IMG/VR virus record: IMGVR_UViG_2548876855_000021
Reading direction: 5' to 3' (one strand)
DNA from: a virus
Lineage: Duplodnaviria; Heunggongvirae; Uroviricota; Caudoviricetes
Length of the DNA: 13,469 bases
In this document: one piece after another, positions 1-13,469 of the stretch
Position numbering within the stretch: position 1 is the first letter of the stretch
Layout: every line of letters starts with the position of its first letter
Made by a program: the position numbers and the translations under genes
Notes under the pieces: model-generated
The model's database searches: none
The model's input: the letters and a program-made list of their open reading frames with translations, nothing else
Told to the model about the DNA's origin: nothing

Positions 1-56
1 TCCTGTTTACCTCTTTCTCAGGGAGTTTAGTCTCCAGGATTTCCGGGGCGGTTCAC
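1..56 (-). mobile_element. Terminal inverted repeat of an IS3-family insertion sequence (IS629/IS1203/IS3411-like end); IS body lies outside the window to the left
   Basis: Positions 2-56 are the exact reverse complement of 13415-13469 (55 bp). Read outward-in the sequence is GTGAACCGCCCCGGAAATCCTGGAGACTAAACTCCCTGAGAAAGAGGTAAACAGG, which from memory matches the TGAACCGCCCCGG... left end of IS629/IS1203-type elements, ending just before where the transposase orfA ATG would lie. Family assignment not verified by search. Confidence 0.55.
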
Positions 57-408
57 CTTTGATATTCACGTCAATAGTGAGCGCCCATTCATCTTGTTTT
101 CCTGCTGCAAGCGGTGAAAGCGGCATAACGCCCGCATTATTGATAAGAACATCAACTCGCCCCCAGCTATCCAGCGCTGCTTGCACGAAATCGGCCATGG
201 ACTGTCGGTCTGTGACATCCAACTCCCGCGCTTTAGCAATTCCTCCTGCGCGGCAGATTTCGGTTGCAATGGCTTCGATACGCTCAACTCTGCGTGCTCC
301 CAGTAAAACCTTTGCACCTGTCATTCCAAGCTCTCTGGCAATACCTTCCCCAATACCACTTGATGCGCCGGTAATTAATATGACCTTATCCATTACGTTC
401 TCCTTCAA
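57..408 (-). pseudogene. Short-chain dehydrogenase/reductase (SDR), N-terminal ~115 codons only; 3' part replaced by the IS end
   Basis: Track ORF 7..408 (-) has the Rossmann motif TGASSGIGEG near its N-terminus and an NNAG motif, typical of SDRs (~250 aa when intact). After ...TIDVNIKG the reading frame runs into the IS repeat (positions 1-56), so the last ~15 residues are IS-derived. Confidence 0.7.
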
Positions 409-491
409 ATGTGTTCGGAGAGAGAATAGAACTTTATGATTGGTTCCAGTATCCTGCTTTCAATGTACTCAGTGGTTAGCGGCATTAAACA
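409..491. promoter_or_regulatory. Divergent intergenic region between the SDR fragment and the LysR gene (presumed promoters and LysR operator)
   Basis: 84-bp gap between divergently oriented genes, the classic arrangement for a LysR regulator and its target. No specific -35/-10 or T-N11-A box could be placed with confidence. Confidence 0.35.
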
Positions 492-1391
492 ATGAAAATC
501 GATCTTAATCTTTTACCCATTTTTATCGCGGTAGCAGAAGAGAGTAATTTTAGTAAAGCCGCCGCACGGCTGGGCGTTACCCGTTCAGCGGTCAGTCAGG
601 GAATAAGACGCCTTGAAGATGCATTCGGGACAATGCTTGTAATGCGGACCACGCGCTCAGTTAATTTGACAGAAGCGGGAGAACGGCTGCATAAATCGCT
701 GTCATTACCTTTATCCGGTATTGAGGCAGCGTTCGAAGAGATGGTTTCTGACCATGTGCCACGCGGACTTCTCAGAATCGCGGTGACGTCAATAGCTGAA
801 GAATTTCTTTCAGGTCCGCTAATCGCTTCGTTTGCAGCAGCCAATCCAGCCGTTACGCTTGATATTGTTGTCACGGATGAGGAATTCGATATCGTGGCCG
901 CAGGTTACGATGCTGGCGTAAGGCTCGGAGAGGTCATTGAAAAAGACATGATTGCTGTGCCCCTTACCGGCAGGCAGCGTGAAATGGTCGTTGCCTCTCC
1001 CTCCTATCTCGCAGCCAACAGCACACCTGTTCATCCGCGTGAACTTGTGAATCATAAGTGTATCGGCTGGCGTCAGTCCCCGGAGGTTGCGCCTTATCGC
1101 TGGCCATTTGAAGAAAACGGGAGAGCTTTCGACCTTGCGATTGAACCGCAGATTACGACTAATGATCTGCGTCTGATGTTGAGGCTGGCTCTTGCCGGCG
1201 GAGGAATAACAATTGCCACTCAGGAAACTTTCAGGCCGTATATTGAAAGCGGTAAGCTTGTATCTCTGCTTGATGACTTTCTTCCACAATTTCCGGGCTT
1301 CTATCTGTATTTCCCACAGCGTCGCAATATTGCACCAAAGCTCCGCGCTCTGATTGACCACGTTAAGGAATGGCGGCAGCAATTGGCTTAA
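492..1391 (+). CDS. LysR-family transcriptional regulator
   Basis: 299-aa ORF with an N-terminal helix-turn-helix (LLPIFIAVAEESNFSKAAARLGVTRSAVSQGIRRLE) followed by a co-inducer-binding-type domain; ATG start; divergent from the SDR gene. Confidence 0.9.
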   Translation: MKIDLNLLPIFIAVAEESNFSKAAARLGVTRSAVSQGIRRLEDAFGTMLVMRTTRSVNLTEAGERLHKSLSLPLSGIEAAFEEMVSDHVPRGLLRIAVTSIAEEFLSGPLIASFAAANPAVTLDIVVTDEEFDIVAAGYDAGVRLGEVIEKDMIAVPLTGRQREMVVASPSYLAANSTPVHPRELVNHKCIGWRQSPEVAPYRWPFEENGRAFDLAIEPQITTNDLRLMLRLALAGGGITIATQETFRPYIESGKLVSLLDDFLPQFPGFYLYFPQRRNIAPKLRALIDHVKEWRQQLA

Positions 1392-1746
1392 ATGTCTGCA
1401 CCTGCATTGCCTGATGTCAGAACAGTATTTTGATTAATTGCCAGGGTTACAATGGCACAAATGCGGCACAGGAGGAAACGTGGTGTATTTAAATATGGGG
1501 TAACTACTTGATTTAAATGGTGCGATAATAGGAACCAATAATCGCCACCAACACAATGATTTTAATACATAAATTAAAATAGAAGATTTAAACTACACAC
1601 ACCCCTATACACATTGGTGAAGGCGTTCGCTTTCCGCGCATTCTCAAGGCAGAAAAAACTTTTTTTGGGGGAAAACTGTTCATACTACTCATTGTGTTTT
1701 TTTTCATTAATATTCAAAAAGATATGAAATTAACGATTGATAAGAA

Positions 1747-1766
1747 GTGAACACTTTACTGTTCAC
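1747..1766. repeat. Perfect inverted repeat GTGAACA-N6-TGTTCAC
   Basis: gtgaaca ctttac tgttcac read directly at 1747-1766; the right arm continues as TGTTCACC (1760-1767), the octamer I recall as the P4 alpha-binding type I iteron. Confidence 0.5.
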
Positions 1767-11627: not shown

Positions 11628-12051
11628 TTTTATTTTTTATAATTGATTGCAACTGCTCATCAGGAATATCACTATATAACTTAACCACCAAATTTATATT
11701 ATGCTCCATCTGCGCAACATATTCATTATGTAGAGAATTTGTAAATGCATATGTTTTTTCAGAAGCTTTATATACAAAACCACGATGTGTATAAATTTTT
11801 GAGGCTAGTTCATAGCCTTGCAACAAAGCCAATGATTCTAAAACAATCTCTCGTTTTAGGGCTAACTGAGCATCTCTACGGGGTATTGGAGGATGAAGAC
11901 TAATCTCTTCAGGTAAAAAATCCTTAAGATTTACTAAAATAAAATCAAAACAAATAAGCCGTTCAAGGCTTAATGAAGAAGGATAAATAGCGACGAGCAC
12001 TTTCGCCATTCGACATGCCACTTCTAAACTTGAATTATAAATTCTAACCAT
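11593..12051 (-). CDS. Hypothetical small protein (about 152 aa) of the cassette
   Basis: ORF in the track as 11593..12066 (TTG start); an ATG at 12049-12051 overlaps the upstream stop as TAATG, indicating translational coupling. No motif recognised. Confidence 0.55.
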   Translation of the reverse strand: MVRIYNSSLEVACRMAKVLVAIYPSSLSLERLICFDFILVNLKDFLPEEISLHPPIPRRDAQLALKREIVLESLALLQGYELASKIYTHRGFVYKASEKTYAFTNSLHNEYVAQMEHNINLVVKLYSDIPDEQLQSIIKNKIGKYDMEFNYE

Positions 12052-12668
12052 TATCTCACCGTCCAAATTACTTCACCATCATTAACCAAATGATGGCATA
12101 TTCCTTTTTTATCATTTGCTTCACATATTTTTGATAGTACTGAATGTGCAATTGGTGTCAGAACAGCCTGCTTCAAGACTGCATTACACCTAATAAATGC
12201 ATAATTATGGTCTTCATAAAAGACGGGTTCAATTGAAGATGAAATGTAACATTTCAATGCTTTGAATACATCATCTTTAAATACTTCGCGGACAAAAACC
12301 TCAAGCGAAGATGCAAAATAAAAATCATTTCTACTATTATTAAAGTGTCGTCTGTATGGATCATCAAGCTCTAAGAAAGAACTATAAGTTTTATTTCCAT
12401 GCTCTGAATAGGCTTGAAGCAGTGCATTAACATATACAGACTCTTTTTTTGAATTGTATGTTGGAATTTCATTTGGAGGGATTCTCACGACATACAGCTC
12501 GTTAAAGTACTTAAAATAAAGGTGTGTATTTGCAATATCATTTAAAATCAATGATAAGGGTAGAGAGTAAAAAATACTAAAATCAAAATCCTCAATATAT
12601 TTTTTTATTTCATCATCTAATGGAATATCAATCTTTTTAGTTATTTTTTTGAAATTGCTGAATCCCAT
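12051..12668 (-). CDS. Hypothetical protein of the cassette; possibly the C-terminal part of a nuclease-domain effector whose N-terminal part is the upstream ORF
   Basis: 205-aa ORF, ATG at 12668 with a weak ribosome-binding site, overlapping the upstream ORF by 28 nt in the -1 frame across an A7 tract. No motif recognised. Confidence 0.5.
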   Translation of the reverse strand: MGFSNFKKITKKIDIPLDDEIKKYIEDFDFSIFYSLPLSLILNDIANTHLYFKYFNELYVVRIPPNEIPTYNSKKESVYVNALLQAYSEHGNKTYSSFLELDDPYRRHFNNSRNDFYFASSLEVFVREVFKDDVFKALKCYISSSIEPVFYEDHNYAFIRCNAVLKQAVLTPIAHSVLSKICEANDKKGICHHLVNDGEVIWTVR

Positions 12669-13057
12669 GAATCAAGGACTGCTTTTTTAAGCTCGTTTTT
12701 ATTTTTCAATAAATTAGAAAATGTAGTAGATAAATCATAGGGTGCCACAAAAAAGTACTTCTGAGGGATGGGATAATCACCATTCAGAGTAAAATAGATA
12801 AGTTTTCCAAACTCAACTACAACATCAGAGAACCCTAAACTTTTTTTGTACAGTTTGCATTGATAATTATCCCAAGAATAACCTTCTACGTTAGGATCCG
12901 ATTTATATCCAACAACGTCTCTACCTTTATCTCCAGCTCCTCCCAAACGTTCGCTCCACGGGTAATCATCTGATTTACAGACAATAAGCCAATCATGGAC
13001 AAATACCTCCCATTGTTCATCATCCCATGTCAATATTTCCGAAAGTGGTTGAGACAC
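12641..13057 (-). CDS. Mrr-like (PD-(D/E)xK) restriction-endonuclease-fold domain protein
   Basis: 138-aa ORF with GTG start and a strong AAGGAG Shine-Dalgarno sequence 7 nt upstream. WEVFVHDWLIVCKSDDYPWSERLGGAGDKGRDVVGY followed by DNYQCKLY resembles the Mrr catalytic-domain pattern (GDGGIDG ... QCK) as I remember it. Confidence 0.55.
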   Translation of the reverse strand: MSQPLSEILTWDDEQWEVFVHDWLIVCKSDDYPWSERLGGAGDKGRDVVGYKSDPNVEGYSWDNYQCKLYKKSLGFSDVVVEFGKLIYFTLNGDYPIPQKYFFVAPYDLSTTFSNLLKNKNELKKAVLDSWDSAISKK

Positions 13058-13060
13058 AAA

Positions 13061-13414
13061 TTAACTCCTTTTTAGTCTTTCAAATATCAAATTACTGTAC
13101 CAGTCCATCATAGACTTCCTTCCACTAAAATATTGAGCATGGTTATAAGTCCCCCTAATAGAATTTTTATCTACATGAGCCAACTGGATTTCAATCCAAG
13201 CACTCTCAAAACCTTGCTCATGCAGGATTGTAGAAAGGGTATGACGAAAACCATGTCCAGTGACTTTTCCTCCATACCCAATACGCTTAATGGCTTGATT
13301 TATACTCGCTTCGCTCATTGGCCTATTCGGATCGTTCCGCCCTGGAAAAACATAACGATAGTTCCCTGTCATGATCTTGAGTTCATTGAGTAAATCTACC
13401 GCTTGAGATGATAA
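13061..13414 (-). pseudogene. int: P4-type tyrosine integrase, C-terminal catalytic fragment only (N-terminal about three quarters removed by IS insertion)
   Basis: Track ORF 13061..13372 (103 aa) carries the tyrosine-recombinase catalytic motifs HGFRHT, LAHVD and RGTYNH; a full P4-type integrase is about 400-440 aa. The frame upstream runs directly into the IS inverted repeat at 13415. Confidence 0.75.
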
Positions 13415-13469
13415 GTGAACCGCCCCGGAAATCCTGGAGACTAAACTCCCTGAGAAAGAGGTAAACAGG
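13415..13469 (+). mobile_element. Terminal inverted repeat of an IS3-family insertion sequence (same end as at 1-56); IS body lies outside the window to the right
   Basis: GTGAACCGCCCCGGAAATCCTGGAGACTAAACTCCCTGAGAAAGAGGTAAACAGG, the exact reverse complement of positions 2-56. Confidence 0.55.

Follow-up and report, generated by a model that had tools for sequence, protein, structure and literature searches.

The window, by which we mean the whole 13,469-nt stretch of DNA that was analysed, is E. coli O157:H7 DNA comprising part of a gene for an SDR-family oxidoreductase, the yagP gene, and most of the P4-like prophage Sp2, beside thrW. It is highly probable that two independent, simple insertions of IS629 into this resident DNA occurred, and that the window terminates where a short-read assembly broke inside a multi-copy IS. 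Two closed genomes from New Zealand, ERL04-3476 and ERL05-1306, matched the entire window at 100% in a single piece, and in both of them full IS copies, inverted relative to each other, are found at the two ends of the segment. Base-by-base comparisons were made with ERL04-3476, and ERL05-1306 was compared through its annotation table and the 100% single-piece match.

Inverted repeat at the window ends

The first-pass annotation had called attention to a perfect inverted repeat at the ends of the window, and this was borne out by reading of the sequence and by a repeat search. Positions 2-56 and 13415-13469 are complementary without a mismatch over 55 nt, and the repeat search lengthened the end repeat to 62 nt at 95%. 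The number of perfect 55-nt inverted repeats expected by chance in 13.5 kb is ~7e-26 (N^2/2 x 4^-55). The assignment of the repeat to the terminus of an IS3-family element was likewise correct: the repeat matches the left terminal repeat (IRL) of an annotated IS1203/IS629 element at 100%. In a blastn comparison with the 1310-bp IS of ERL04-3476, the IS proper accounted for window positions 1-55 on the minus strand (IS nt 55 to 1, 100%) and 13416-13469 on the plus strand (IS nt 1-54, the IRL end, 100%). The 55-nt repeat is made up of the IRL and one flanking base that pairs by chance; positions 56 (c) and 13415 (g) lie outside the IS and are the first and the last base, respectively, of two different target-site duplications. 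Position 1 is an additional IS base present on the left side only. The left stub consists of the IRL end and the leader and stops just short of the orfA ATG, with the body of the IS running leftward beyond the window; the body of the right IS runs rightward beyond it. A blastn search of the window with the full IS revealed only one further match, of 14 nt (7685-7698, E 0.18), which was treated as chance.

The properties of the element were read in its closed-genome copy. The full element is 1310 bp long and is annotated in RefSeq as an IS3-like element IS1203 family transposase with a programmed frameshift. Its IRL (TGAACCGCCCCGGAAATCCTGGAGA) and IRR (TGAACCGCCCCGGTTTTCCTGGAGA) agree at 22 of the first 25 positions in the full copy of ERL04-3476, and its termini are TG...CA, the window itself carrying the IRL alone. 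Frame 1 contains orfA (Pfam HTH_Tnp_1, E 2e-12), and frame 3, which is the −1 frame, contains orfB (Pfam rve, E 9e-28); an A-rich site, GGAAAAAATGA, is located at nt 373 of the 1310-bp element. The element thus has the features by which IS3-family members are recognized, i.e., TG...CA ends with imperfect terminal repeats, orfA and orfB joined by a −1 frameshift within 1.2-1.5 kb, and a target duplication of 3-4 bp. Target duplications of 3-4 bp have been reported for IS629, as have 19-21 chromosomal IS629 copies in O157:H7, 62% of them within prophages (PMC3271280). The IRL end was found at ~24 places in the ERL04-3476 chromosome.

The window holds only 54-55 nt of the IS at either end, which is too short to reveal a transposase, and the repeat could on that account be taken for a coincidence, an artefact of an adapter or vector, or the product of a chimeric assembly. 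The probability of such an origin is next to nil. At exactly these two positions, two independently closed genomes carry a full-length annotated IS1203 whose terminus the repeat matches at 100%, and the non-IS reading is already refuted.

Truncated genes and the P4-like prophage

Each IS end had been described as truncating a gene, an SDR gene on the left and a phage integrase gene on the right, and the partial Pfam profiles agree with this. On the left, positions 56-393 (minus strand) encode the N-terminal 113 codons of the SDR-family oxidoreductase known in strain Sakai as ECs_0306 (Pfam adh_short, profile positions 1-111 of 195, E 2e-29). The gene is intact in Sakai, at 723 bp, and is annotated as a pseudogene in RefSeq on either side of the IS in ERL04-3476. 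On the right, positions 13061-13415 (minus strand) hold what remains of intS, the Sp2 tyrosine integrase gene (Sakai ECs_0289), namely its C-terminal 118-119 codons (Pfam Phage_integrase, profile positions 69-170 of 172, E 2e-12). As reading frames in the window, the two fragments span 55-393 (113 aa) and 13061-13420 (119 aa). The N-terminal part of int is annotated past the IS, at 20728-21555 of the ERL04-3476 locus (L001), and the intact Sakai gene is 1182 bp long.

Between the two truncated genes, the LysR-family regulator gene yagP (492-1391, plus strand; Pfam HTH_1 and LysR_substrate; Sakai ECs_0305 by the Sakai annotation) is a chromosomal gene and not part of prophage Sp2. The left border of Sp2 is a degenerate, thrW-derived att-like sequence at 1508-1534, recognized by its likeness to the thrW 3' end; the stretch TTGATTTAAATGGTGC-GATAATAGGA is similar both to the thrW 3' end and to the Sakai Sp1/Sp2 junction. 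No tRNA gene was found within the window by a tRNA scan. Most of Sp2 occupies positions 1534-13415; the feature annotated in Sakai as "prophage Sp2, P4-like phage" corresponds to 1534-14420 in window numbering. Past the right IS, outside the window, come the 5' portion of int and the right att site. The Sp2 genes in the window are a hypothetical gene, the alpha primase-helicase gene, the Icd-like/CI RNA immunity region, sid, psu, and delta, together with the 3' portion of int and a Lamassu defence cluster that has decayed. A 796-aa protein contains the Pfam domains Zn_Ribbon_Prim, Toprim_3, D5_N, and Pox_D5, and matches to C4 RNA (84 bits) and isrK RNA were detected in Sp2. The P4 gene set, including annotated sid, psu, and delta, and the thrW-derived repeats at the borders identify Sp2 as a P4-like satellite. 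A single 1-nt change in a homopolymer (a T7/T6 run) is all that separates the interior of the window from Sakai.

Two IS629 insertions in closed genomes

In ERL04-3476, the left full IS occupies positions 4746-6055 and the right full IS positions 19416-20725 of locus L001, and a base-by-base comparison showed the two copies to be identical at 1310/1310 nt. The transposase genes on both sides point away from the segment in the closed genomes, so the two copies face outward as had been proposed, and the expectation that the segment lies between two full IS copies of opposite orientation was confirmed in both closed genomes. A search for short target-site duplications outside the IS copies, which the first-pass annotation had suggested as a check, was also successful. 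In ERL04-3476, CCTT is present on both sides of the left IS and AAG on both sides of the right one; the inner copies are at window positions 56-59 (a 4-bp duplication) and 13413-13415 (a 3-bp duplication). The corresponding empty sites in Sakai contain one CCTT and one AAG, and the SDR gene and intS are both intact there. Past each IS of ERL04-3476, the missing halves of the SDR gene and of intS resume colinearly, in register, and in the same orientation.

Among 5426 complete genomes, the two junctions are differently distributed. Four genomes (F6667, NZRM4165, ERL04-3476, and ERL05-1306) carry the left junction, and the right junction is contiguous in only two of these four, ERL04-3476 and ERL05-1306. 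In F6667 and NZRM4165, window positions 1-13415 aligned as a single piece, and int is therefore intact there. Because four complete genomes have the left junction and two of those have the right one, the SDR insertion was probably the earlier of the two, judging from these four genomes only. At least 80% of the segment is present in ~305 genomes, most of which are without one or both IS copies (the alignment starts at 51, or extends to 13415). Strains 319 and DEC4E appeared at first as carriers of the whole window (1-13469, in three pieces) and were rejected; each is without one junction, and nearby IS ends had been joined to the alignment.

Separate duplications, colinear gene halves, intact genes in Sakai, and the nested distribution of the junctions thus point to two sequential, independent, simple insertions. 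One IS copy entered the SDR oxidoreductase gene, duplicating CCTT, and the other entered the Sp2 integrase gene intS, duplicating AAG. The two copies landed in opposite orientations, with the IRL ends toward the segment and the transposase genes outward. The strain from which the window derives presumably carries both IS copies at full length and keeps the ancestral orientation as well, given the 100% identity of the two closed genomes to the window.

The first-pass annotation had raised the idea that the segment is composite-transposon-like, i.e., that the IS copies and the interior form a unit that delivered the segment to its location or mobilizes it now. The minimal architecture of such a unit is indeed present, since in closed genomes the 13.4-kb segment has a full-length IS on each side, the two being identical, just as the cargo of composite transposons of the Tn10/Tn5 type lies between identical, inverted IS copies. 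As an account of past events, this idea is not sustained and must be considered extremely improbable. A duplication common to the whole unit and occurrence of the segment in other contexts were sought; what was found instead was a duplication for each IS, gene halves in colinear order, and relatives lacking the IS copies. Unlike in Tn10/Tn5-type elements, the left IS is bordered by CCTT and the right IS by AAG, and no duplication is shared around the unit, its outer flanks (...CCTT and AAG...) being different sites; both cut genes carry on across their IS. The cargo is resident without IS in related genomes; in Sakai and many others, the IS-free interior lies at the same thrW/Sp1-linked locus, and the interior was not found in varied contexts. 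The left and right insertions also differ in their phylogenetic distribution. IS3-family elements transpose by a copy-out-paste-in pathway, studied in IS911, in which the IRL is normally joined to the IRR to form a circle junction. In a further difference from the Tn10/Tn5 type, both outer ends of the segment are IRR, and this argues against transposition of the unit through an IRL-IRR junction.

An invertible segment had been suggested as well. Recombination between the inverted 1310-bp IS copies would flip the segment of 13.4 kb, and the source strain could then be inverted or mixed. The two IS copies are identical, inverted, 13.4 kb apart, and of a length suitable for RecA; inversions in O157:H7 have been attributed to IS629 and prophage repeats (PMC8046923, PMC7430833), and the window reads identically in either orientation. 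An inversion would exchange the outer flanks and thereby break the duplication pairs. Both closed genomes that carry the IS pair are in the ancestral orientation, and the duplications are matched at each IS (junctions read in ERL04-3476). No further genome among the 5426 complete ones has both junctions. The segment contains no recombinase or regulated switch logic, the nearby pinE belonging to Sp1, outside the segment. We found no evidence for inversion, either as the occurrence of both orientations or as exchanged duplications, in the two complete genomes with both inner junctions, which are both colinear. Inversion is accordingly very unlikely, and the IS pair qualifies as a potential RecA substrate only.

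The two insertions would nevertheless have left behind a 1.3-kb inverted repeat pair that is in principle able to recombine. There is a very slight chance that, in the sublineage with both insertions, the IS629 pair flips the Sp2 region, giving a mixed population, or moves the 16-kb IS-Sp2-IS unit as an IRR-IRR composite, taking the P4-like satellite and the defence-gene remnants to new sites.

Probable contig break and known IS629 polymorphism

The default settings of SPAdes for short reads use a largest k of 55, and contigs overlap by k at repeats. The stub of k length (55 nt), the multi-copy nature of the IS, and the full IS copies at both positions in closed genomes are what is expected of a contig break. 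A k=55 de Bruijn assembly would probably have stopped at the two window ends, which lie 55 and 54 nt inside the IS copies; a contig cannot pass the first fully repeated k-mer, because the IS has ~20 or more copies per genome. The possibility that the contig broke inside repeated IS copies, which had been offered as an equal option, thus proved to be the one that fits best, given the 55-nt shared end and ~20 or more IS copies per genome (PMC3271280). At the left end, the shared bases number 56, not 55; this speaks against k=55 and requires a one-base trivial extension.

Tools of the ISMapper type exist since IS copies break assemblies (PMC4558774). As in other short-read breaks at IS, each contig end stops k bases into an IS that is repeated (~20 or more copies); unlike in the usual case, both ends here fall in the IRL of one and the same IS, oppositely oriented. 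The contig ends therefore form an inverted repeat and invite a composite-transposon reading.

The insertions belong with the known IS629/IS1203 insertion polymorphisms of O157:H7, with which they share the 1310-bp element, the orfA/orfB −1 frameshift, and the DDE (rve) transposase. They also share the 3-4 bp duplications, the preference for prophages, and the strain-to-strain variability that is exploited in IS-printing and IS629 typing (PMC3271280). They do not differ in kind from these polymorphisms; the SDR (ECs_0306) insertion and the intS insertion at this position are rare (4 and 2 of 5426 genomes, respectively). In the TW14359 lineage (15 complete genomes), the same IS is inserted in the same orientation in the same Sp2 intS, 310 bp closer to the 5' end of int, with the duplication CTT and an IS that differs at 3 of 1310 positions; this insertion is an independent event. 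The two insertion sites described here were not found in the literature searched with the strain names, ECs0289, and ECs0306; they are annotated in RefSeq records.

IS629 insertions combined with an assembly break are an ordinary, already documented situation and known biology, and the finding matters little beyond housekeeping. It illustrates cleanly how contig ends lying k bases into a multi-copy IS can mimic a composite transposon. ECs_0306::IS629 and this intS::IS629 are markers of a small sublineage of O157:H7, associated mostly with New Zealand, and could aid IS-based typing. The SDR gene and the Sp2 integrase would both be lost in carrier strains, and the int insertion presumably immobilizes the P4-like satellite prophage Sp2, which would be locked in place.

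The terminal repeat and its IS element

Positions 2-56 and 13415-13469 of the window were found to be perfectly complementary over 55 nt, both by direct reading of 60 bases at either end and with a repeat finder, as the first-pass annotation had claimed; the calculated chance expectation for perfect 55-nt inverted repeats in 13.5 kb is ~7e-26. The repeat finder lengthened this match to 62 nt (95%), and detected no further long repeats within the window, the next-best inverted pairs (27-28 nt, 75-78%) being background. In the ERL04-3476 locus (L001), where the window occupies positions 6001-19469, each window end is prolonged by a 1310-bp element labeled in RefSeq as [quoted passage not shown]. 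The element carries all IS3-family hallmarks: TG...CA ends, terminal inverted repeats matching at 22 of the first 25 positions, an orfA with HTH_Tnp_1, and an orfB with rve (DDE) in the −1 frame. The earlier attribution of the repeat to an IS3-family terminus was therefore borne out, as was the outward-facing arrangement of the copies: the left and right elements, identical at 1310 of 1310 nt, are inverted, with their left terminal repeats (IRL) turned toward the segment and their transposase genes pointing outward. When the element was compared with the window by blastn, IS nt 1-55 corresponded to window 55-1, and IS nt 1-54 to 13416-13469. Thus, the 55-nt repeat consists of 54 nt of IRL-proximal IS sequence and one flanking base (c at 56, g at 13415) that pairs by chance.

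IS1203 is an IS629 isoform common in O157:H7, where 19-21 chromosomal copies are found (PMC3271280). In the ERL04-3476 chromosome, an IRL end query gave hits at ~24 sites. About 95 nt upstream of sid, a stretch of 14 nt (TGAACCGCCCCGGA; 7685-7698, minus strand) matches the IS629 terminus exactly, probably by chance (E 0.18).

For short reads, SPAdes by default uses k values of up to 55. A unique path in a de Bruijn graph built with k=55 would stop at the first 55-mer common to another path; with G preceding TGAACC at both flanks, the shared 55-mer would be G + IS[1-54], coinciding precisely with 13415-13469 and, in reverse complement, with 2-56, while the extra base at position 1 would represent a one-base edge to IS[1-55]. 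We infer that a k=55 contig break accounts for the exact coordinates better than any biological boundary. The suggestion that the contig had broken inside repeated IS copies agrees with the exact 55-nt shared end, the multi-copy nature of the IS, and the full element present at both ends in the closed genomes; multi-copy IS elements are a standard cause of short-read contig breaks (PMC4558774).

Host locus and content of prophage Sp2

A megablast search of 5426 complete E. coli genomes identified the window as E. coli O157:H7 chromosome, with at least 80% of it present in 305 genomes (306 records); one genome must therefore have two segment-bearing records, either because its Sp2 region is duplicated or because its assembly is split. 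All 13,469 bases were recovered at 100% in a single piece from two New Zealand strains, ERL04-3476 (pork) and ERL05-1306 (lamb). The sole difference between the interior (56-13415) and strain Sakai, in which both target genes are intact, is a homopolymer run at 10431-10437 (T7 versus T6).

According to the Sakai annotation, the region starts at the left with oxidoreductase ECs_0306 (Pfam adh_short on the left fragment in the window) and contains the LysR regulator yagP (ECs_0305; HTH_1 and LysR_substrate) and the 12.9-kb “prophage Sp2, P4-like phage”, whose last gene is integrase intS (ECs_0289); beyond intS lie the lambdoid remnant Sp1 and then tRNA thrW. The Pfam, Rfam, and att-repeat results of the present analysis were consistent with these assignments. 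Pfam revealed P4 alpha-type primase-helicase domains in a 796-aa protein, and Phage_integrase in the right integrase fragment. Rfam matches on the minus strand to C4 antisense RNA (P4 CI-type immunity RNA; 6293-6380, 84 bits) and isrK sRNA (6449-6526, 72 bits) indicate that the P4 immunity region looks intact. Both RNAs are located inside an ORF annotated as Icd-like protein.

The Sp2 borders are marked by thrW-derived att-like repeats. The left one (1508-1534) is a degenerate copy of the thrW 3′ part with a 1-nt deletion, and the Sp1/Sp2 junction contains a 47-nt copy of the thrW 3′ part (L002 16065-16111 and 26651-26697); Sp2 and Sp1 occupy thrW as a tandem array. Between the left border and the alpha gene, in a low-GC stretch (~1400-3100; 30-33% GC around the ORF), a 318-aa ORF (2067-3023, plus strand) had no match in Pfam or PADLOC; it may represent an uncharacterised satellite gene with an accessory or defence role. 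A second low-GC stretch (9780-13057, minus strand, 26-33% GC) lies between delta/ogr and int, where P4-like satellites carry their accessory genes, and contains a Lamassu (ABC-3C) defence system in a decayed state. On the minus strand, LmuA is broken into a pair of ORFs (12641-13057 and 12051-12668; PADLOC profile positions 10-140 and 141-333) and LmuB into three (10968-11627, 10428-10937, and 9780-10346), and LmuC/MC2 (11593-12066) appears intact. The Lamassu ATPase is a pseudogene in the Sakai annotation, and the T7/T6 run sits inside the LmuB pseudogene, altering the local ORF pattern.

History of the insertions

The truncation of a gene by each IS copy (SDR on the left, int on the right), noted from the window alone, was confirmed in ERL04-3476, where the missing halves, the C-terminal part of SDR and the N-terminal part of int, follow in register directly past their IS. 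A search outside the copies revealed one pair of target duplications per copy, CCTT on both sides of the left IS and AAG on both sides of the right one; the Sakai empty sites contain one CCTT and one AAG, inside intact genes. Both lengths fall within the published range of 3-4 bp for IS629 duplications (PMC3271280). The annotated layout of ERL05-1306 is the same.

The first-pass annotation had considered the segment composite-transposon-like or invertible. The segment does lie between two full inverted IS copies, but the occurrence of either process was not upheld. The evidence argues against both: target duplications flank the copies separately, with none around the whole unit, the two interrupted genes run on colinearly past their IS, and relatives without the IS hold the interior at the same locus. 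Moreover, both outer ends are right terminal repeats (IRR), while IS3-family transposition, as known from IS911, normally joins IRL to IRR. The two insertions also differ in distribution. Four genomes (F6667, NZRM4165, ERL04-3476, and ERL05-1306) contain the left junction (query 1-130) without a break, and only the latter two the right one (query 13340-13469); F6667 and NZRM4165 align with 1-13415 in one piece, and their int gene is thus uninterrupted. The simplest history is that two IS copies entered resident DNA one after the other by independent simple insertions, the SDR insertion being first. If the two copies recombined and inverted the segment, the window sequence would stay the same, and inversions mediated by IS elements or by prophages are documented in O157:H7; however, both closed genomes with the IS pair have the ancestral orientation, and matched duplications were read in ERL04-3476, making inversion only a potential outcome.

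In 15 further complete genomes of the TW14359 lineage, the same Sp2 int gene is interrupted by IS1203 in a third, independent event. This IS (positions 3387-4696 of the TW14359 locus, L003) is located 310 bp further toward the int 5′ end, at a point equivalent to ~310 bp past the right window end, in the same orientation and with a CTT duplication, and differs from the window-flanking copies at 3 positions. IS629 has therefore inserted into Sp2 int on at least two occasions.

Inferred consequences for the interrupted genes

The window is a textbook example of how IS629 insertion sites vary among O157:H7 strains, coupled here with a break in the assembly, and is in this sense already known; the exact IS-segment-IS structure is annotated in RefSeq closed genomes. 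Literature searches found no paper discussing the two IS629 sites (SDR ECs_0306 and the intS position), whose novelty is limited to their value as typing markers. The left IS interrupts the SDR gene after codon 113 of 240, and the last 118 codons of intS are parted from the rest. This C-terminal part corresponds to Phage_integrase profile positions 69-170 of 172, the region in which the C-terminal catalytic residues of tyrosine recombinases fall. This separation should abolish the excision of Sp2.
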